A stretch of DNA of 64,000 bases. It comes from an uncultured Candidatus Saccharibacteria bacterium. Its GTDB lineage: Bacteria; Patescibacteriota; Minisyncoccia; Phycocordibacterales; UBA9973. The stretch is taken from positions 5,577-69,576 of the forward strand of contig CAYVDC010000001.1 in the NCBI GenBank assembly GCA_964450735.1, given 5' to 3'. Both the position numbers and the translations under genes were made by a program. Shown here piece after piece: positions 1 through 62,028 of the stretch. Position 1 is the first letter of the stretch. Each line of letters opens with the position of its first letter. The notes under the pieces were generated by a model. It searched no databases. It was given only the letters and a program-made list of their open reading frames with translations, and was not told the DNA's origin.

Positions 1-633
1 ACGAATAGGGTCAATTAATAAACCAATACCAGCACCTTCTTTAGAAGCACTTGCAATGTTATTAATAGTTTCTTGTATCCCTTCTTTGGAGTCCATCAAC
101 AAATGTGTCAAATTACAAGAGATATAAGATGCTCTATCCGTTCCTACATTTGTTAAAATTGGTGTTGCTACACTAATTCTTTTAGCTTTTAATTCTTCTG
201 AAAATTCCTTCCTTTCTTCTTCATCTTTTCCTAAGAAATTAGCCACTCTATCATACATCATAGAGGGAAGTTCTATTGGATTACCCGCATCGTCTCTCTT
301 GCTATAACTTCTCAAAAATGTGACAGCACCAAAAAAGTCATATTTTAAATCAACTTCTTCCGGAACTACTCCAATTCCTTTTCCTTGTCTTGTTAATAAA
401 ATTCTTGCCCCAAGAACACTATAATCAGGATGTTCTGTCATTAAATCTGCGCATTTAAAAGCAATTATTTCATCAATATTAGTGGTGTCCATTCCATCTG
501 AAATGGAAGGTATCACTTTTTGAAAAACATAATCAGGATTGGTTTTTAAATCTTTTGATTGTGCTTTTATTCTATTTAAGATTTTATTAGGCATGAATGG
601 TTGCAATGAACCATCGTTTTTTAATATTTTCAT
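1..633 (-). CDS. nrdA: Ribonucleotide reductase class I large subunit (NrdA), N-terminal 211 aa; gene continues beyond window start
   Basis: ATG at 633-631 (complement). Translation MKILKNDGSLQPFMPNKIL... is ATP-cone-like. It also contains the ...CNLTHLL... and ...EGAGIGLLIDPIR motifs typical of class I RNR alpha. It starts 10 nt after the nrdB stop. The frame is open to position 1. Confidence 0.8.
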   Translation of the reverse strand, partial: MKILKNDGSLQPFMPNKILNRIKAQSKDLKTNPDYVFQKVIPSISDGMDTTNIDEIIAFKCADLMTEHPDYSVLGARILLTRQGKGIGVVPEEVDLKYDFFGAVTFLRSYSKRDDAGNPIELPSMMYDRVANFLGKDEEERKEFSEELKAKRISVATPILTNVGTDRASYISCNLTHLLMDSKEGIQETINNIASASKEGAGIGLLIDPIR

Positions 634-643
634 TTATTTTTTA

Positions 644-1594
644 TTAAAAATCTTCTAAAAAAATGTTTTCATTTTCACTTGGAATTTCTATCCTTGTGTA
701 TTCCCCCACTCTATTTTCAAAGAAATTATTCTTTCTTTTTAATGCAATTCTATTCATGTAGTCTAATGGATTAGAAACATTGAATTTAGGAGGAACATTG
801 TAATTAATAAGAATACTATCTGTGATATATTGAACAAACTGTATCATATCTTCTTTAGTAAGTCCTTCCAAGCCATCAGGCATACTTTCTTCTACAAAAG
901 TTTTCTCCACTTCGTAACATCCCAACACTATCTCTTCTAATTCTTCATTTGAAAGTTTATATTCCTCTTGTAAATAATTATTATAAAGATGGAGTCCGAA
1001 TTCATAATGAAGATTTTCATCTCCCATAATTAATTCATTGGCTGTACAAAGTCCTAACATTTTATTTCTACTTCTAAAATAGAATATTCCTGCAAATGTT
1101 GAGGAAAAACTAAGACCTTCCACCAATGAAAATGCTACCAATCTATGTGCAAATGATTGGTGTCCTATCCATTTTAAAGCCCATTCTGCTTTCTTTTTCA
1201 CTGTTTCTATCTCAGAGATAGCATTAAACATCTTTAATTGTTCTCCCCTATCTTTTATATAGGTGTCAATTAAAATTGAATATTGATTACTATGTACTTG
1301 TTCAATAAATGTTTGATGACCATAGAAATATTGTGCTTCCAATATATCCACTTCATTTAGAAAATTAACAGCTAAATTTTCTAACACCAACCCATCACTT
1401 ATAGTGAAAAATGCCAACAAATTCTTCAAATATTCCTGCTCTAAAACAGGAAGTTCGTTGAATCTATCGGCACTTAAATCATTTTCTTCCACCACCCATG
1501 TTTGGGCTTCTGCTTTTTTATAAAAACTCCATAAATCCCCATGTGTAATTGGGAAAATACTCCATCTTTTTTCAATATCATTACTTTTGAGCAT
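644..1594 (-). CDS. nrdB: Ribonucleotide reductase class I small subunit (R2)
   Basis: 316-aa ORF. The WSIFPITHGDLWSFYKKAEAQTWVVEE N-terminus and iron-ligand/tyrosyl-radical-region motifs (EGL.FS.FA.IFYFRSR, GDENLHYEF) are typical of NrdB/NrdF. Confidence 0.85.
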   Translation of the reverse strand: MLKSNDIEKRWSIFPITHGDLWSFYKKAEAQTWVVEENDLSADRFNELPVLEQEYLKNLLAFFTISDGLVLENLAVNFLNEVDILEAQYFYGHQTFIEQVHSNQYSILIDTYIKDRGEQLKMFNAISEIETVKKKAEWALKWIGHQSFAHRLVAFSLVEGLSFSSTFAGIFYFRSRNKMLGLCTANELIMGDENLHYEFGLHLYNNYLQEEYKLSNEELEEIVLGCYEVEKTFVEESMPDGLEGLTKEDMIQFVQYITDSILINYNVPPKFNVSNPLDYMNRIALKRKNNFFENRVGEYTRIEIPSENENIFLEDF

Positions 1595-1871
1595 ATTCTC
1601 CTGTATAAAGTCTTATAAATTCTTCATGTGTTTTAATAATTCTCCATTCTTCTTCTAAACAATAGCTATTTTTTATTTGGACAAATAGTGAAGTGTCTTT
1701 TCTATTTAATAAAAATTTGTCACCAAATTTACTTTCAAATCTATGAATGTATTTTTTATCATCAAAATTGACAGATTTTCCAAGAAAAATAACTATCCAA
1801 AATATTATTTCCTTGAACATAGCTAAAAAACAAAGGAAATTGGAACATTCATATATCCTGATTTTTTCCAA
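1581..1871 (-). CDS. hypothetical protein (96 aa)
   Basis: ORF on the dominant coding strand. No recognisable motif. Overlaps the nrdB start by 14 nt. Confidence 0.3.
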   Translation of the reverse strand: MEKIRIYECSNFLCFLAMFKEIIFWIVIFLGKSVNFDDKKYIHRFESKFGDKFLLNRKDTSLFVQIKNSYCLEEEWRIIKTHEEFIRLYTGEYAQK

Positions 1872-2077
1872 TTTTTTCCATAATAAGCCTCCATTGCTGC
1901 TTTATAATGAGCAATAGCCACTCTTAATTCGTTTTTTTCTTCCTTTGATTTTTTATACACTTCAAACGAAAGATGATTGGCACGAGGATTTTGAACTTCT
2001 CGTTGAATTGTTTGTTGATTATACCAACGTCTGTTAGCATCTTCTCTATCTGTAACAGTCACTAATTCTAACACCAT
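1823..2077 (-). CDS. hypothetical protein (84 aa)
   Basis: ORF on the dominant strand. Overlaps the previous ORF by 49 nt, so one of the two starts is probably internal. Confidence 0.3.
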   Translation of the reverse strand: MVLELVTVTDREDANRRWYNQQTIQREVQNPRANHLSFEVYKKSKEEKNELRVAIAHYKAAMEAYYGKNWKKSGYMNVPISFVF

Positions 2078-2103
2078 AGTTAATTTTGTTTATTTGTTTT
2101 TTT

Positions 2104-2160
2104 GTGGTAGCCGACGGAATCGAACCGCCAATGTTTCTAATGTAACTGATTTACAGTCAG
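2104..2160 (-). tRNA. tRNA 3'-half fragment (pseudo-tRNA). It has an anticodon arm with a GUA (Tyr-type) loop, a T-arm GGCGG-TTCGATT-CCGTC, and an acceptor 3' strand GGCTACC-A. No matching 5' acceptor strand or D-arm was found.
   Basis: The minus strand reads ...GCTGA CTGTAAA TCAGT ...GGCGGTTCGATTCCGTCGGCTACCA. This includes a canonical T-loop and a 7-nt anticodon loop with U33. The complementary 5' acceptor strand GGTAGCC is absent within 200 nt on either side. Confidence 0.4.
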
Positions 2161-2182
2161 CCTCCTTCACCGTTCAAAAAAT

Positions 2183-2596
2183 CTAAGAAAAATTATGTAT
2201 CTTAGTCTTTTCTTCTTGTTTCAACCAACCACTACTTTTTAGTACGTCGTTGCCGAGTCTGTCATCCATAGTTAGGTTGTCCACAAGCGTAAATTCGGAC
2301 AAACGTTGCCCTATGTTATCATTATATATTCTAATTCCCTCTCTTTCAATATTAATTGCTGCGTTTAAGTCACGGTCAATAACGTTTTCACATTCCTCAC
2401 AAATAAATTCTCTATCCTTTAATGTTAAATTGCCATTCTTCCATCCACATTGGCAACAAGTTTTTGACGATGGAAACCATCTGCCAACAAATATTAACTC
2501 TCTACCATACCACTTTGATTTATATTCCAATTGTCTCCTCATTTCATATAACCCAAGTTCCTGAATAGACTTAGCTAATTTATGGTTCTTCATCAT
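2183..2596 (-). pseudogene. tnpB: IS200/IS605-family TnpB (OrfB), C-terminal fragment carrying the zinc finger and RuvC-III region
   Basis: Contains ...WFPSSKTCCQCGWKNGNLTLKDREFICEECENVIDRDLNAAINI.... The CxxC...CxxC finger followed by the DRDxNAAxNI motif is the hallmark TnpB C-terminus. The N-terminal two thirds of the protein are missing from this ORF. Confidence 0.7.
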
Positions 2597-3444
2597 TCCA
2601 CTAACATATTTTTATCCCAATCATTTTTGAATTTGTTGTATTTGATATTTGTGATTGTTTCTAATTCATTTTTTAATATAATTTTAAGGTTATATCCAAT
2701 TTCAATAAACAATCCGCATTTTTTCTTGGATTTATCAGAAAACATTCCTTTTATTTCAACCCATTGATTATCTTTTATTAAATAGAAATCGGGGGTATAT
2801 CTTAATCCGTTTAATAATTTTATAGTCTTATATTCATATTCCCATTCAATTAAATTATTTGTTAAATATTGAGCATACATAACTTCAAAACCACTTCTCA
2901 TTTTAATAAAAACACCATTTTTGTAAACTCCCCATTTTCTAGTTGAACACATTTTAGTGCTGTTATTTAAACCTATTCGACTACCAGTGATACTAACCAT
3001 TTCTTTTTGATAACACCCACAACTTTTAACTTTACCAGATACTAAATCAGCGTAATAATTTCTTTTAATATTACCACAGTCACATTTTGTTATATAGTAA
3101 TAACCCCCATTCTTATCATTCTGTTCAATATTTACAATGGTCAATCTATTAAATTTCTCACCAATCTTTGAATTTGCTGTTTTTGTATGTTTTTTATTTA
3201 AATTTCCAATACCAACTGAACATCCACACCCAATAATTTTACCGCTAGTTAAAACACTACCTCTAATTATTTTCTCATTACCACAATCACATTTACATAA
3301 ATATTCTTTTCCGTGATTCCCTGTGTGATTTAATTTAACTACTGTCAATTTTCCAAATTTAATACCAGTCAAGTCTTTTCCTTTACTCCCGCCAATTTTA
3401 TTACTCATATTGTTATATATTTTATCTATATATAAATATAACAA
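2593..3444 (-). CDS. putative homing-type endonuclease with two N-terminal zinc-ribbon DNA-binding repeats and a C-terminal PD-(D/E)xK-like nuclease domain
   Basis: Two repeats of the form FGKLTVV...YLCKCDCGNEKII...SGKIIGCGC and FNRLTIV...ITKCDCGNIKR...SGKVKSCGC. C-terminal ...RYTPDFYL...QWVEIKG... resembles a PD-(D/E)xK motif. It sits exactly between the two TnpB fragments. Confidence 0.45.
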   Translation of the reverse strand: MLYLYIDKIYNNMSNKIGGSKGKDLTGIKFGKLTVVKLNHTGNHGKEYLCKCDCGNEKIIRGSVLTSGKIIGCGCSVGIGNLNKKHTKTANSKIGEKFNRLTIVNIEQNDKNGGYYYITKCDCGNIKRNYYADLVSGKVKSCGCYQKEMVSITGSRIGLNNSTKMCSTRKWGVYKNGVFIKMRSGFEVMYAQYLTNNLIEWEYEYKTIKLLNGLRYTPDFYLIKDNQWVEIKGMFSDKSKKKCGLFIEIGYNLKIILKNELETITNIKYNKFKNDWDKNMLVE

Positions 3445-3482
3445 TATTTAGTTTTTTCTAAAATAATAACTTGGTTTTTTAA

Positions 3483-3809
3483 TTATTTTTGTTCATTGTT
3501 TTTAGATTTAAACTTAGGAAACCCTTTATGCCGTTTAAAGAAGTTTTTATATGCTTGTTCTAAGTTAATAATAGATTGTTTCAAAACTTTAGTATTATGT
3601 TCTTTTAACCAAATGTATTCAGTTCTTAGATTACTATGAAAGAAATGACCTAAATCTGATAGCGATGTATTTTGTTTATTTGAATCATAACGTTGTTTTT
3701 TGTATGATAAACATTGATTAAAGACAAACCGATAAGACCCAAAAAGTGAGTTTATCTTATGTTTTTGCTTATCATTTAGATATAATCTTATCTTTATTGC
3801 TTTTAACAT
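3483..3809 (-). pseudogene. tnpB: IS200/IS605-family TnpB (OrfB), N-terminal fragment
   Basis: MLKAIKIRLYLNDKQKHKINSLFGSYRFVFNQCL...EYIWLKEHNTKVLKQSIINLEQAYKNFFKRHKGFPKFKSKNNEQK matches the conserved TnpB N-terminus (KxxKxRxYPxxxQ...FG..RFVxN...AxKNFF...GxPKFKSK). The ORF terminates after roughly 108 aa. Confidence 0.7.
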
Positions 3810-4057
3810 TATTTCTTAACTTATTTTTCTTTTTTTTCTACGTTCAACACTACGCTTATCATAGAGATAACCATAAATACTATCAATTATTAACACCAAA
3901 TCAGTTACCAAATCTTCTTGTTCACTTACATTATTTTTCTCAATATATATCATCTCAACCCCATATATATTAAACAAATTATATTGAAACTTTGTTAATC
4001 TATTTTTATCCTAATCTTACATCTTTCATATTTGTTTATTTATATTTTGAGCAATAA

Positions 4058-4131
4058 GTGGGACTCAAACTCATAGCCCCCGACTTGGAAGGACGGTGCG
4101 CTAACCAATTGCGCCATTATTGCTTATGTTC
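4058..4131 (-). tRNA. tRNA-Gly (anticodon UCC)-like, 74 nt, with a non-canonical T-arm
   Basis: Minus strand reads GCAATAA TG GCGC AATTGGTTA GCGC A CCGTC CTTCCAA GTCGG ... TTATTGC T. The 7-bp acceptor stem is perfect and the D-arm is textbook. The CUUCCAA anticodon loop is the same as T4 tRNA-Gly. The anticodon stem has one U-U mismatch. The 17 nt where the T-arm should be (ATGAG TTTGAGT CCCAC) do not pair canonically. Confidence 0.5.
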
Positions 4132-49795: not shown

Positions 49796-50734
49796 ATGAA
49801 TATTGAACTCCTTTCTTTAATAGAATCTGTATTAGGAAATGGAGATAGAAAAGCAAGGGAAAACTATGCTTTCTATTGTCCAAATTGTAAACATCATAAT
49901 AAGAAATTAGAAATTGATTTACACACTGATAGCTATTTACAAAATAAATGGGGATGTTGGGTGTGTGGATTTAAAGGAAGAACTGTTAGAGCATTATTTA
50001 GAGTGCTTAGAGTTCCCATTGAAAAAATGGAAAAACTAAATTCTCTAATTAGGTATAAATCTGATGGAGAAGAGCATAGAGAAGAAGTGATTTCATACCC
50101 CCCTTCTTTTAAATTCATCAAAGACTATAATAATCTAAGAGGATTTGAAAGACTCTTTGCCAAAACTGCTATACGTTATTTAGAAAAGAGAAATGTTGTT
50201 TTTGATGATATTGTAAAATATAACATAGGAATATGTACAGAAGGAAAGTTTAAAAATAGAATTATATTTCCCTCTTACGATGGAGATGGAGTATTGAATT
50301 ATTTTACAGGAAGAATTGTAGTTGAAAAAGGACTTCCTCCTTACACCTTCCCCGAATCTAATAAGAATTTAATTCCATATGAGTCTCATATTAATTTTAG
50401 TGAACCTGTTGTTTTATGTGAAGGAGTTTTCGATGCAATAGCCATTAGAAATAATGCTATTCCATTATTGGGAAAATTCGTTAGTGAAACTTTACATGAA
50501 GCACTTGTCAATAAATCAAATGATATTTATATATGTATGGACAAGGATGCTATGAGAGAGGCGTTACATTTAGGAATGGAATATAAATCTTATGGAAAAA
50601 ATGTTTATGTTGTTGAACTTCCCGAAAAAGACCCATCAGAAATGGGATGGGAAGAAGTGAATAAATTAATAAGAAAAACACCAATTCTTTCAGATAGGAA
50701 AATATTGGAAATGAAATTCAAATATAATATTTAA
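49796..50734 (+). CDS. DnaG-type DNA primase (T4 gp61-like): zinc-binding domain plus TOPRIM
   Basis: CPNCKHHNKKLEIDL...WGCWVCGFKG forms a zinc ribbon. VVLCEGVFDAIAI is the TOPRIM glutamate motif. YICMDKDAMREA is DxD-like. Confidence 0.55.
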   Translation: MNIELLSLIESVLGNGDRKARENYAFYCPNCKHHNKKLEIDLHTDSYLQNKWGCWVCGFKGRTVRALFRVLRVPIEKMEKLNSLIRYKSDGEEHREEVISYPPSFKFIKDYNNLRGFERLFAKTAIRYLEKRNVVFDDIVKYNIGICTEGKFKNRIIFPSYDGDGVLNYFTGRIVVEKGLPPYTFPESNKNLIPYESHINFSEPVVLCEGVFDAIAIRNNAIPLLGKFVSETLHEALVNKSNDIYICMDKDAMREALHLGMEYKSYGKNVYVVELPEKDPSEMGWEEVNKLIRKTPILSDRKILEMKFKYNI

Positions 50735-51720
50735 TGAAATCGTTATACGGAATTGTAACTAATTTGTTGGTTGAAAATGAATATGAATTAAATAATTTAT
50801 ATGAAAATCAAGATAAAAACATCATCAATGAATTTATCAAATTCTGTAAACAAGAAATTGGATTCCAAACCCATCCCATTGTAACATTTACTAAGAAAAA
50901 AGAAAATACTAAAACATTAGGACATAACGATTTATCAAATAACAAAATAATGGTTTATATACAAGATAGATTGATGGCTGATGTAATGAGAACATTGGCA
51001 CATGAGTTTGTTCATACAAAACAAAAAGATTTGAATGTATTGAATGTTAATAGTGGAAATGATGGAAGTGAACATGAAAACGAAGCTAATTCTAAAGCAG
51101 GGGAGATATTAAGAAAATTTGGAAAAAAATTTCCTGAAATATATTCTCAAAAGTTTCCTGTAAATGCTTATAAAAACACTTATTTTGATAATAAAATATT
51201 AAAAGAATCTGACGGAGTGTATGAATATGGGTGTTTAATGTTAAAATTAAACATTGATAATTGGAAAGATGTTATTGGAAAGATAAGTGATGATGATTTA
51301 TATATGAGTGAAGAAAATGGTGGATATGGAAAAGAGAAAACTCCTCACATCACCATTTTATATGGATTTCTTCCCACAACAAATTATAATGATGTTGAAA
51401 AAGTTCTTTCTAAATTAAAAAAGCCCATAAATGTTACATTAGATAAACTCTCTTTATTTAAAAATGAAGAATTTGATGTATTGAAATATGATGTAAGTGG
51501 AAGGATATTACATTCATTAAATAAATTATTTTCAGAGAAATTTGAGAATGAAAATAAATTTACAGAATATGTTCCTCATTGTACAGTGGCATATATTATA
51601 AAAGGACAGGGTGGTAAATATATCAAACCAATTTCTCCTTTTAAAGCATCTTGTGATGAATTTATATATTCCTTTCCTAATGGAGAAAAGAAAACATTTA
51701 GAATAAATAACAATGTCTGA
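50734..51720 (+). CDS. fusion protein: N-terminal HExxH metallopeptidase-like domain plus C-terminal 2H phosphoesterase domain (LigT/Acb1-like)
   Basis: LAHEFVHTKQ is an HExxH motif. The C-terminal half has two H-x-T-hydrophobic motifs, KTPHITILYG and YVPHCTVAYI, about 90 aa apart, which is the 2H-family signature. Confidence 0.5.
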   Translation: MKSLYGIVTNLLVENEYELNNLYENQDKNIINEFIKFCKQEIGFQTHPIVTFTKKKENTKTLGHNDLSNNKIMVYIQDRLMADVMRTLAHEFVHTKQKDLNVLNVNSGNDGSEHENEANSKAGEILRKFGKKFPEIYSQKFPVNAYKNTYFDNKILKESDGVYEYGCLMLKLNIDNWKDVIGKISDDDLYMSEENGGYGKEKTPHITILYGFLPTTNYNDVEKVLSKLKKPINVTLDKLSLFKNEEFDVLKYDVSGRILHSLNKLFSEKFENENKFTEYVPHCTVAYIIKGQGGKYIKPISPFKASCDEFIYSFPNGEKKTFRINNNV

Positions 51721-52285
51721 ATCATATTTAAAAAAAGAAATAAATAATGCTGACTTACAAAGGGTTCGCAATTTAATTACAAAACAATTCACGAATGGAA
51801 CTCAAATTCAAGGTGGATATGTAAAGAAATCTATTCCGAGAAATGAGGGGGATATTTGGGCAGAGAATAATAAGAAATTCACCATTAAAAATGGAATAAA
51901 AATAAACATCACTTCAACAGATGATGTTAGAGCTTCTGTTATAGTTCCATTATTTTGTCCTAAATGTTCTTCTATAATGAAACATGAGAACGATAAGAAG
52001 ATGTATGGTATTTATGGACATTGTTTTTCATGTCAAATTAAAGAAGAAACGGAAATGAAGATAAATGGAACATATGTTGAATTTGAAAAAAGTAAATTGA
52101 GACAAAATCTAATTTCAATTGCTGATGAAATAGAAGAAGAGTTGGTGGATATGGTGCATAATCCCATTTCTTCTTATGTAACAGAAGCAGGAGATAGCGA
52201 GAATTGGGTTGGGGATGTTAATAACGAAGAAGCCATAGCTAAAGTGAAAGAAATAGCTAAAAAGCTCAGAAATGTTAAATTCTAA
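51713..52285 (+). CDS. zinc-ribbon protein (190 aa)
   Basis: CPKCSS...(20)...HCFSC forms a zinc ribbon. Confidence 0.4.
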   Translation: MSESYLKKEINNADLQRVRNLITKQFTNGTQIQGGYVKKSIPRNEGDIWAENNKKFTIKNGIKINITSTDDVRASVIVPLFCPKCSSIMKHENDKKMYGIYGHCFSCQIKEETEMKINGTYVEFEKSKLRQNLISIADEIEEELVDMVHNPISSYVTEAGDSENWVGDVNNEEAIAKVKEIAKKLRNVKF

Positions 52286-54987: not shown

Positions 54988-55164
54988 ATGAGAAATCCAA
55001 AGATAGAACTACTTATCGTTAAAGAATATTTGAAAAAACTAAACGAAGACGTGAGTGCTATTAGTCAAAGTGAAAAAAATGCTAAAAGAGTAGAGATTCA
55101 GGCTTCAATTAAAGCGGCACAAGAGAGAATTAAAACTTTACAAGCACAATTGAGGACATTATAA
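54988..55164 (+). CDS. small coiled-coil protein (58 aa) immediately upstream of the large terminase gene
   Basis: MRNPKIELLIVKEYLKKLNEDVSAISQSEKNAKRVEIQASIKAAQERIKTLQAQLRTL. Below the ORF-track size cutoff. Confidence 0.3.
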   Translation: MRNPKIELLIVKEYLKKLNEDVSAISQSEKNAKRVEIQASIKAAQERIKTLQAQLRTL

Positions 55165-55170
55165 TCCTTT

Positions 55171-60299: not shown

Positions 60300-60877
60300 T
60301 GTTAGTTGATTTTATTGGGTATTTGAATCTCACCCCTGCTCAAATTAATGAGTCTATAATGAAAAATAATGGACTTTTAGTGGTAGAAGGTGTCATTCAA
60401 CGTGCAAATGCTAAAAATGGCAATGGACGGGTTTATCCAAAGATGATATTAGAAAGAGAAGTGACTAAATATCAAGATTTAATTACTAATAATAATGCTT
60501 TAGGATGTTTAGACCATTATGACACACAAATTGTAGAATTAAAGAACGCTTCGCATAAAATAACTAAATTATGGTGGGAAGGTGATGATTTATGTGGTAG
60601 AATGGAGATTCTTTCCACTCCATATGGAAATATTGCCAAAGAATTGTTCTTAAATAAAGTGAATGTAGGTATTTCTTCGAGGGGAACGGGTAGTGTGAAG
60701 AATATAGGGGAAGTAATAGAGGTTCAAGATGATTTTGAATTGGTATGTTGGGACTTAGTATCAGTCCCGTCAACTAAAGGAGCGTATTTGAACATGATAA
60801 GTGAAGGAATCTCTCCTCAAAACACCAAATATAATAAAATTAACAACATTGTCAACGACATTCTAACTAATTATTAG
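60296..60877 (+). CDS. prohead core protease (T4 gp21-like)
   Basis: ...NGNGRVYPKMILEREVTKYQDLI...LGCLDHYD... resembles the gp21 family N-terminal region. Position is immediately before the scaffold and capsid genes. Confidence 0.55.
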   Translation: MMLVDFIGYLNLTPAQINESIMKNNGLLVVEGVIQRANAKNGNGRVYPKMILEREVTKYQDLITNNNALGCLDHYDTQIVELKNASHKITKLWWEGDDLCGRMEILSTPYGNIAKELFLNKVNVGISSRGTGSVKNIGEVIEVQDDFELVCWDLVSVPSTKGAYLNMISEGISPQNTKYNKINNIVNDILTNY

Positions 60878-62028
60878 TGGATAAAATAAAAGGAGGACTT
60901 GCTGATAATGTCCCTGATGGGAAATTTAATTTAGTTTCATTGTTAAAAGGAATTAAAGTGGAAATGGAACACACTTCTGATAAGGAAGTGGCTAAGGAAA
61001 TAGCAAAAGACCACCTTTCAGAAGACCCATTATATTATCAGAAGTTAAAATCCCTCAATTTAGAAAGTATTTTAAAAGAAGCATCTCCATTTTCAGAATT
61101 CATAGGAAAAGAACTATCTGATGAATATGAAATAACAGGAATAAAAACAGATGAAGATGGAAATATAAAGATTTCTCTTTATAATCTATATTCAGGAAAA
61201 AATCAAGACTATATAGAATATAATAGAGAAGAAAAGAAGTTTTATATTAATCAATTGGGAACTCGGTTATCAATTCCCGATGAATACCATTCATTTAATA
61301 TCCAAAGTCATAATTTATTAAATGCTATTATTTCAAAAAGCACTCCTAAAATTGAAAAATTAAATAATAGCGCTGACACTTCTTCTTATAGAGGATATTT
61401 GAAACACATTCCCTCCGATGCTGTAACTTATTACAGAATATTTCCAAAAGATAGTCATTTAGAAAATAAAATCAAGCTACAATTTCGTAAATTGAAAAGA
61501 ATAGCAGAAAAGAATAAATGGAACTTAGAAAGAGAAGTGATTCATACTAAAAAACACGACTTTCTTATTCATTTTAAGAAAGGAGACGAAAGTTTAAGGT
61601 ATATTCCATTCGTAGAAGATAAAACGGGAGAGGGACAAAACGATTTCACCACTGTTCATAGAATATTTTACAATGAAAGATGGTGGGAATTTAACGATGT
61701 TGATAAATGCTTTGGAATGGCTGAGTATATCCTTTCAGGAAAGGAAAAGAAAGAAAATGTAAATAATAAAAATGAAGATATAATAAAATCTCTTCTTAGA
61801 ATAGTAAAAGACCATTTGAAAAAAGACGGAGATGTGAAATCATTATATAACATAGCCGTAAGAGCAACAGAAGAAGGGGATGAAACAAGTGTAGCAGGAT
61901 TGGTGAAAACCATTTCAAATAAATTGTTACAAAAAGAAGATGTTAAAATAGAAATTCCCAAAAAGAAAAAATCAGAGATAGTTTATATTGAAAAAATTGT
62001 TCAATTTTTATTAAATAAAGATAAATGA
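60877..62028 (+). CDS. prohead core/scaffold-associated protein (383 aa)
   Basis: Lys/Glu-rich coiled-coil segments. Lies between the protease and the acidic scaffold. Confidence 0.35.
   Translation: MDKIKGGLADNVPDGKFNLVSLLKGIKVEMEHTSDKEVAKEIAKDHLSEDPLYYQKLKSLNLESILKEASPFSEFIGKELSDEYEITGIKTDEDGNIKISLYNLYSGKNQDYIEYNREEKKFYINQLGTRLSIPDEYHSFNIQSHNLLNAIISKSTPKIEKLNNSADTSSYRGYLKHIPSDAVTYYRIFPKDSHLENKIKLQFRKLKRIAEKNKWNLEREVIHTKKHDFLIHFKKGDESLRYIPFVEDKTGEGQNDFTTVHRIFYNERWWEFNDVDKCFGMAEYILSGKEKKENVNNKNEDIIKSLLRIVKDHLKKDGDVKSLYNIAVRATEEGDETSVAGLVKTISNKLLQKEDVKIEIPKKKKSEIVYIEKIVQFLLNKDK

Follow-up and report, generated by a model that had tools for sequence, protein, structure and literature searches.

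The locus at positions 50734..51720 (+) of the DNA studied here (64,000 nucleotides of contig CAYVDC010000001.1, the whole of which is called the window) raises the question of what a small phage protein does that carries a metallopeptidase-like HExxH motif in its N-terminal half and the two H-x-T motifs of a 2H phosphoesterase in its C-terminal half. The window is part of an AT-rich tailed phage (30% GC), covers half or less of the phage genome, and showed no close DNA-level similarity to known phages in the phage collection. The open reading frame (ORF) starts with ATG and encodes 328 amino acids (aa) plus stop. An earlier note on this DNA had given exactly these coordinates and proposed an Acb1-like, possibly two-headed anti-defence protein or, alternatively, an RNA-repair protein. 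The analysis identifies the product as a minimal polyvalent-type protein, which joins an unnamed clade of the polyvalent-protein metallopeptidase (MPTase) hub to a 2H clade that is related to Acb1 on sequence comparison; the polyvalent concept itself is eight years old. As to function, we put the probability at roughly 50% that the protein is a phage effector whose 2H head would act on nucleotide signals of host defence, with the gluzincin-type MPTase as a handling module. The ORF is divided as follows.

50734..51720 (+): whole ORF, two-domain MPTase–2H protein, with 8 full-length homologues and a conserved position in related phages
50734..50820 (+): N-terminal leader, aa 1–29; residues 1–23 have a predicted local distance difference test score (pLDDT) below 50
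50821..51153 (+): zincin-like MPTase domain, aa ~30–140; helix, three-stranded sheet, HExxH helix, Glu helix
51001..51015 (+): HEFVH, aa 90–94, invariant; H90 and H94 predicted to bind Zn, with E91 as catalytic base
51076..51078 (+): E115, which would be the third Zn ligand; part of the G-S-x-x-E-N-E-A-N motif where helix 113–132 begins
51154..51225 (+): inter-domain linker, aa 141–164; residues 151–162 have pLDDT below 50
51226..51717 (+): 2H phosphoesterase domain, aa ~165–328, putatively of an Acb1-related clade, as judged from PF13563, Foldseek, phrog_755 and hhalign
51346..51354 (+): first catalytic H-x-T, H205-I206-T207, in PHITILYG; invariant in homologues
51577..51585 (+): second catalytic H-x-T, H282-C283-T284, in PHCTVAYI; preceded by F276 and Y279

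When the protein was shuffled with its composition preserved, two or more H-x-T-hydrophobic motifs arose in 0.7% and HExxH in 1.4% of cases. The stronger argument that the motifs are real is their invariance in homologues. H90, E91, H94, E115, H205, T207, H282 and T284 are conserved without exception across 9 full-length homologues (40–79% identity), both H-x-T motifs are invariant among 12 C-domain sequences, and HExxH, Q97, E115, R79, D83 and R86 hold without exception in two sets of N-domain sequences, one of 26 and one of 111. The His-x-Thr pair is hence retained on careful alignment. Its spacing, which had been estimated as about 90 residues, was measured as 77 from H205 to H282. A second copy of either domain was not found elsewhere in the 64-kb window.

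The C-terminal 2H domain

The proposal that the C-terminal half is a 2H phosphoesterase is secure, because the sequence passes PF13563 (2'-5' RNA ligase superfamily, the generic 2H model) with 30.8 bits vs a gathering score of 27, and because all 28 PDB fold matches at E ≤ 1e-3 (Foldseek) are 2H enzymes, with YjcG (2d4g) at the top. The AlphaFold2 (AF2) model, based on an alignment of 44 sequences, contains a confident domain at aa ~165–325, and pLDDT in the C-domain is mostly above 90.

Sequence-level comparisons lean towards Acb1 as the nearest characterised family. Acb1 degrades the signals of the cyclic-oligonucleotide-based anti-phage signalling system (CBASS; Hobbs et al. 2022, PMC9117128). 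The only PHROG match of the target protein is phrog_755 (E 2e-6, over profile positions 40–123 of 156), the family that T4 gp57B (Acb1) matches at 228 bits over its full length. When a profile of the 12 C-domains was run against 177,635 PDB sequences, only Acb1 chains were found, namely those of Burkholderia phage BCSR5 (9q2g, E 0.0026) and Erwinia phage FBB1 (7t26, E 0.069). Of the 12 clade members, nine give a match to the Pfam model ‘Anti-CBASS protein Acb1’ (PF23474), whose cut-off of 27 is reached by two relatives (P0010 with 33.9 bits, P0003 with 27.1 bits). Alignment of the clade profile to a 7-phage Acb1 alignment with hhalign gave 93.6% (E 2e-7), spanning both H-x-T motifs. With single sequences as counterpart, the clade profile scored 31 (47%) for T4 Acb1 vs 21 (3.3%) for E. 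coli ThpR/LigT.

The correspondence extends to individual residues. Both HMMER and hhalign align H205, T207, H282 and T284 to Acb1 H44, T46, H113 and T115, and the signature [FYW]-x-x-Y-x-[PAG]-H-x-T at the second His is common to the clade and Acb1 (F107, Y110 and H113 in T4). In Acb1, the ligand is contacted by the nucleobase-stacking aromatics Y12, W74, F107 and W147, by the adenine-reading E141 and by a C-terminal lid, residues 145–152 (PMC9117128). The F107 equivalent, six positions before the second His, is aromatic in 11 of the 12 clade members (F276 in the target), Y110 corresponds to Y279 at position −3, and the equivalent of W74 may be the invariant F242. The target shares with the Acb1 proteins of T4, FBB1 and BCSR5 (PF23474, phrog_755) a phage-encoded 2H fold with the H-x-T/H-x-T pair. 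Acb1 is a stand-alone protein of ~150 aa, whereas the 2H domain of the target is fused to a metallopeptidase. The 2H fold and the H-x-T pair are also found in the LigT/ThpR and YjcG 2',3'-cyclic phosphodiesterases; ThpR, however, has no aromatic residue at position −6 of the second His, as the target clade does. The clade is one of marine phages.

The naming of such proteins deserves a remark of its own. T4 gp57B (NC_000866 73952–74410; L008:3953–4411, −) is still annotated as ‘RNA ligase’ in RefSeq, and phrog_755 carries the same label. Many phage annotations that read ‘2'-5' RNA ligase’ or ‘RNA ligase’ inherit this misleading name, including those of Maribacter phages Molly and Colly, both of which match the 2H domain of the target protein. 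A separate observation concerns the cultured Pseudomonas phage psageK9 (NC_074661, 41321–43123; L014), where the end domain of a 600-aa ‘STY1048-like’ protein is matched by T4 Acb1 (E 6e-5), an Acb1-like head that here belongs to a larger protein.

The metallopeptidase hub and its fusions

The N-terminal half is predicted to adopt a zincin-like HExxH metallopeptidase fold, in the form of a minimal gluzincin, in agreement with what the earlier note had read from the motif; peptidase activity is likewise a prediction. Modelled alone (AF2, 28 sequences), the domain reached a pLDDT of 94.3 and a predicted template modelling score (pTM) of 0.88. Its topology is H-EEE-H-H, with H90, E91 and H94 on helix 81–99 and E115 on helix 113–132. 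The two histidines together with E115, 21 residues after H94, form the gluzincin metal-site pattern. The best Foldseek matches in the PDB are all zincin peptidases, namely proabylysin (4jiu), selecase (4qhi), projannalysin (4jix), SPRTN (6mdw) and IrrE/PprI (3dti), and in BFVD, a collection of predicted viral structures, the domain matches proteins of uncultured phages at TM 0.8–0.88, among them several large ones with AAA, amidoligase or cytidylyltransferase domains. Minigluzincins (proabylysin, projannalysin, selecase), SprT/SPRTN and IrrE/ImmA (M78) likewise have a catalytic domain of ~110 residues in which this topology is combined with HExxH and a Glu downstream. The target N-domain differs from them in being a phage fusion module and in showing no significant sequence similarity to them. 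Besides the metal site, R79, D83, R86, Q97, G111 and A118 are invariant; the first four, together with the G-S-x-x-E-N-E-A-N loop, are specific to this MPTase when compared with solved zincins.

At the sequence level, the domain matched no PDB sequence, a phmmer search of the PDB with the whole protein as single query yielded nothing above noise, and no Pfam model in the library searched, those of polyvalent proteins included, detects the MPTase clade. The target N-domain gave sub-threshold scores only, for M78/IrrE (14.1 vs 22 bits) and DUF6055 (17.8 vs 27 bits); weak Pfam matches across the clade are to M78, DUF6782, DUF3920 and Tox-MPTase3. The N-domain profile was searched exhaustively against 1.84 billion cluster representatives (clusters at 50% identity). 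This search returned 3,902 clusters at E ≤ 1e-3 and 3,110 at E ≤ 1e-10, in carriers that span 128–2,192 aa. Of the 143 best new representatives, 51 carry the MPTase internally, 42 at the C-terminus and 34 at the N-terminus, while 16 consist of it alone. Among 111 representatives, the partners are cytidylyltransferase-like (15), DUF5661 (9), DUF6934 (7), ParB_N (4), Tad3 (2) and NT5C (2) domains, and further partners are Pol-beta nucleotidyltransferases, ART-PolyVal and Hint. Tad3 is a Thoeris inhibitor. P0152 and P0167 (~1,470 aa each) combine ART-PolyVal, the MPTase and amidoligase.

This partner spectrum corresponds to the polyvalent proteins, in which a zincin-like MPTase of the same topology is the commonest hub, occurs at any position and is fused to unrelated effectors (Iyer et al. 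2017, PMC5512222). The clade found here is an unnamed, very abundant clade of that hub. As regards its kind, the arrangement is therefore not new among phages, contrary to the impression in the earlier note, as proteins of this kind were described in 2017. 2H domains were catalogued there too, as part of polyvalent proteins and also as solo phage genes (PMC5512222). Literature searches for a metallopeptidase–Acb1-type fusion and for this MPTase clade found no description. Typical polyvalent proteins are much larger than the target, which has two domains in 328 aa, and the target, unlike them, has no MuF, portal or ArdC-N fusion and adjoins a primase. Packaging in the virion, delivery with the DNA and a place among late or virion genes are further marks of polyvalent proteins (PMC5512222). 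Effectors including 2H domains are common to both, and ART-PolyVal, ParB_N and amidoligase are among the domains that occur together with the target's MPTase clade. The hub is highly conserved and joined both to known counter-defence domains (Acb1-like 2H, Tad3, ART-PolyVal) and to numerous unknown ones; its profile offers a ready hook for finding new phage anti-defence domains through fusion. The target itself is a simple two-domain model for the role of the polyvalent-protein peptidase, an open prediction since 2017.

A protein of the window's head-gene block touches on the same family. Downstream of the portal gene, 60877–62028 (+) encodes a 383-aa protein with an N-terminal DUF5661 (PF18905; GIKVEMEHTSD...DHLSEDPLYYQKL), in a block that also holds a T4-type prohead protease (S77). 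As DUF5661 is the second commonest MPTase partner and occurs in this head block, a link between the MPTase hub and head-internal proteins is suggested.

Turning to the fusion proper, the order MPTase–linker–2H occurs in at least 8 loci (the window, L001–L003, L005, L006, L016 and L017). The reverse order is found in 3 loci, two of them on phage contigs of 187 kb and 372 kb, where a nucleotidyltransferase (NTase)-like domain of the Pol-beta type stands N-terminal to 2H and MPTase. Because the domains are fused recurrently and in two orders, there is good evidence that they work together functionally. The full-length model (pTM 0.53) shows a disordered linker, and no fixed contact between the domains is predicted; in homologues of 380 aa the linker is ~50 aa longer. 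Within the fetched loci, no stand-alone 2H gene was seen adjoining a stand-alone MPTase gene. The 2H clade also occurs as stand-alone proteins of 181–190 aa, and as the C-terminal domain of longer proteins. The permuted and the longer forms are located as follows.

L004 7935–9671, L019 5176–6933, L022 5131–6906: permuted NTase-like–2H–MPTase proteins of ~557–592 aa with conserved GS...DxD
L018 2647–5055, L020 3426–6419, L021 296–3289, L024 4789–6516: proteins of 576–998 aa with the 2H clade as C-terminal domain

The N-terminal part of the 998-aa protein of L020 had no match in the phage collection, and the whole protein none among PDB sequences; the N-terminal part of the L019 protein was likewise without matches. 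Genes near the permuted fusion in L004 encode a CCA-adding enzyme, a nicotinate phosphoribosyltransferase (NAPRTase) and ThyX. One apparent swap of the effector, which would have spoken strongly for modular exchange, was rejected. P0016 shares aa 1–213 with P0005 at 88% identity and continues into another C-terminus. In its contig L015 (JGI 3300020045 Ga0206662_1002809; 1–3777), however, bases 1–874 match L005 in forward and bases 1309–3777 in reverse orientation. Thus, L015 is a fold-back chimera and the alternative C-domain of P0016 is most likely an assembly artefact, which calls for caution in domain-architecture surveys that use such metagenomic databases.

Function of the fusion protein

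In the reading that we favour, the 2H head would hydrolyse second messengers of host defence, i.e. cyclic di- or trinucleotides or related 3'-5'/2'-5' species. Hydrolysis would be metal-independent and proceed via a 2',3'-cyclic phosphate intermediate, as in Acb1. The N-domain would operate as a Zn gluzincin with H90, H94 and E115 as ligands and E91 as general base, and most likely processes or handles its own fusion protein, releasing or activating the effector across the disordered linker. Its handling role may alternatively lie in packaging or maturation; cleavage of a host protein appears less likely. Such assignments would agree with the literature on polyvalent proteins, where the hub MPTase is predicted to serve mainly in autoproteolytic processing or encapsidation and only possibly to act on host proteins, and where 2H domains are proposed to be Usb1-like RNases or to degrade 2'-5'-linked oligoadenylate (2-5A) and signalling-defence nucleotides (PMC5512222). 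A more specific version takes the N-domain as a universal delivery or activation handle, the target as a self-processing pro-enzyme, and the substrate range as Acb1-like yet different from that of canonical Acb1, on the grounds that lid and Y12 are missing; put together in this way, the version is on the unlikely side. Should the 2H head degrade immune nucleotides, evasion of the Acb1 type would reach environmental phages of high AT content whose portal and prohead protease are of T4 type, and also larger phages, up to contigs of 372 kb, and signal specificity may differ.

Several findings weigh against an effector directed at defence signals. A first set concerns the relation to Acb1. PF23474 did not match the target protein even at E ≤ 10, nor the C-domain at 0.01, and the PHROG, Pfam and PDB matches are limited to the core between the two H-x-T motifs. 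The His–His spacing is 76–83 in the clade vs 69–70 in Acb1, the position of Acb1 Y12 aligns to aliphatic residues, a lid Trp after the second H-x-T (W147 in Acb1) is not conserved (present in 2 of the 12 members), and an E141 equivalent could not be placed in the clade alignment. For these reasons, the C-domain is filed, as far as its sequence allows, as an Acb1-related 2H clade and not as a member of Acb1. The earlier label ‘Acb1-like’ is accordingly apt for the nearest characterised family and too strong for membership. It should be noted that some homologues of T4 Acb1 lack the lid Trp as well, so that this feature is not decisive. Comparison of the predicted structure with solved 2H structures, Acb1 and LigT among them as had been suggested, favoured no subfamily. 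YjcG, Usb1, Deinococcus cyclic phosphodiesterase (CPDase), LigT, Acb1, the penguinpox cyclic GMP–AMP (cGAMP) phosphodiesterase and rotavirus VP3 score alike, with E-values of 1e-5 to 1e-3 and TM-scores of 0.5–0.68. A second set concerns the N-domain, whose fold matches are weak in E-value (0.03–0.3), albeit with probabilities that reach 0.99, and whose status as an active peptidase, along with its cleavage target, rests on prediction. Finally, the target gene is translationally coupled to a primase gene and does not lie among clear anti-defence genes, relatives of the 2H clade are found beside or fused to functions of nucleic-acid end processing (PNK3P, CCA-adding enzyme, NTase-like), and the anti-defence activity of the protein is itself a prediction.

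The last of these sets leads directly to the healing of RNA ends, the alternative that the earlier note had offered. The 2H domain would open 2',3'-cyclic phosphate ends on tRNA or mRNA in the manner of LigT/ThpR, as part of a phage RNA-repair route, the ends being left by metal-independent host ribonucleases such as anticodon nucleases and toxin RNases. The best Pfam and NCBIfam names are indeed those of a generic RNA ligase or cyclic phosphodiesterase (PF13563, and TIGR02258 with E 4e-7), the permuted relatives carry the NTase-like domain with its GS...DxD, a gene for a CCA-adding enzyme lies ~1.1 kb from the relative P0009, a PNK3P 3'-phosphatase gene abuts the stand-alone 2H relative P0024, and 2H enzymes of jumbo phages have been read likewise (PMC7824862). 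Conversely, both LigT-type models stay below their cut-offs on the target protein (TIGR02258 30.1 vs 65.7 bits; PF02834 17.2 vs 23.3 bits), the clade profile is closer to Acb1 than to ThpR, and no RNA ligase or polynucleotide kinase turned up in the gene annotations of the 64-kb window or in the related loci that were fetched. In addition, polyvalent and solo 2H domains are reported never to associate with RNA ligases (PMC5512222), and RNA repair offers no obvious place for the peptidase hub. RNA repair is the main rival reading, though a rather unlikely one.

As far as sequence goes, the description as a two-headed anti-defence protein is plausible; the literature on polyvalent proteins tends to take the peptidase for a module of self-processing or packaging and less often for a second weapon. 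In the strict form, a host immunity protein (for instance a cyclase, an effector or a regulator of a signalling defence) would be cut by the peptidase and the signal removed by the 2H domain. In favour of this, thousands of clusters keep every predicted catalytic residue of the gluzincin, conflict systems are known to include zincin effectors with host proteins as targets, Iyer et al. allow this reading (PMC5512222), and the fusion exists in two independent orders. However, the same highly conserved peptidase (~40–50% identity) is attached to very different partners or occurs alone; generic handling or processing therefore fits better than a target-specific weapon, and we regard two concerted attacks on host immunity as distinctly improbable.

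An offensive RNase appears quite doubtful as well. Here, the 2H domain would act on host RNAs as a metal-independent ribonuclease or 3' exonuclease similar to Usb1/Mpn1, after delivery or activation through the peptidase module, a parallel to the PBECR RNase domains of polyvalent proteins. Usb1 is among the best fold matches (6pfq, 2.6e-5; 6d2z, TMt 0.59), and an RNase is one of the two readings that Iyer et al. gave for polyvalent 2H domains (PMC5512222). The similarity in fold extends alike to all 2H subfamilies, though, the sequence matches no Usb1 family, and the evidence at that level leans to Acb1. Least probable of all is an accessory of nucleotide salvage or replication without a role in conflict, a phosphodiesterase that would recycle cyclic or 2',3'-phosphorylated nucleotides for DNA synthesis: the translational coupling to the primase, the conserved place in the primase–exonuclease block and a window rich in nucleotide metabolism speak for it, but conflict-type domains dominate among the partners of the hub and the nearest characterised relative is an immune-evasion nuclease.

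Genomic setting

The target ORF shares nucleotides with both neighbours: its ATG runs into the stop codon of the primase gene before it (TAATG), and 8 nt at its 3' end belong also to the gene after it. On the upstream side lie genes for a DNA primase (phrog_47) and a glycosyltransferase of family 2; on the downstream side come three small unknown genes, followed by those for an exonuclease similar to Mre11/SbcD and for the large terminase and the portal, both of T4 type. With terminase and portal 3.4 kb further downstream, the target gene has the same orientation as the structural genes; baseplate and large tail-fibre-like genes are further upstream on that strand, and the prohead protease and head genes downstream. 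The order primase, fusion gene, unknown genes, exonuclease-like gene (where the locus reaches that far) and terminase is kept in related metagenomic phages at ~40% protein identity, and the portal follows the terminase wherever the fetched locus extends far enough (L001–L003, L005, L006). Conservation of gene order at this level of divergence argues for a stable lineage gene and against a recent insertion.

A scan for promoters and terminators around the target gene found sites no more numerous than in shuffles. The only strong sigma-70-like site of the plus strand (55137–55165, 11 of 12 matches) is located just upstream of the terminase gene, and there are hints that the block from primase to exonuclease, the target gene included, forms a transcription unit apart from the packaging genes. 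At the start of the protein, a leader stretch (I/V)V..L(L)V.E is conserved in P0001–P0007 and absent in P0008; that it is a prohead-protease site or a targeting signal would be pure speculation.

The gene that follows directly, at 51713–52285 (+), encodes a 190-aa protein with a zinc-ribbon-like CxxC...CxxC motif (CPKCSS...CFSCQ), which matches no family. Genes of similar size (189–196 aa) stand directly after the fusion gene in L001–L003 and L005, the likeness being one of size and position. The 190-aa protein may be a functional partner of the fusion protein.

Elsewhere in the window, a block on the minus strand (644–23368) encodes a ribonucleotide reductase (RNR) small subunit, a thymidylate synthase, a protein of the inosine monophosphate dehydrogenase (IMPDH)/GMP-reductase type, a papain-family cysteine peptidase, several methyl- and glycosyltransferases and endonuclease I, together with a TnpB-like protein (Cas12f1-like TNB plus HTH_OrfB_IS605). 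These families are reported per group of ORFs, except for the RNR small subunit, which was assigned to a single ORF (644–1594). The region also contains a single tRNA-Gly gene with the anticodon TCC, at 4049–4123 (−).

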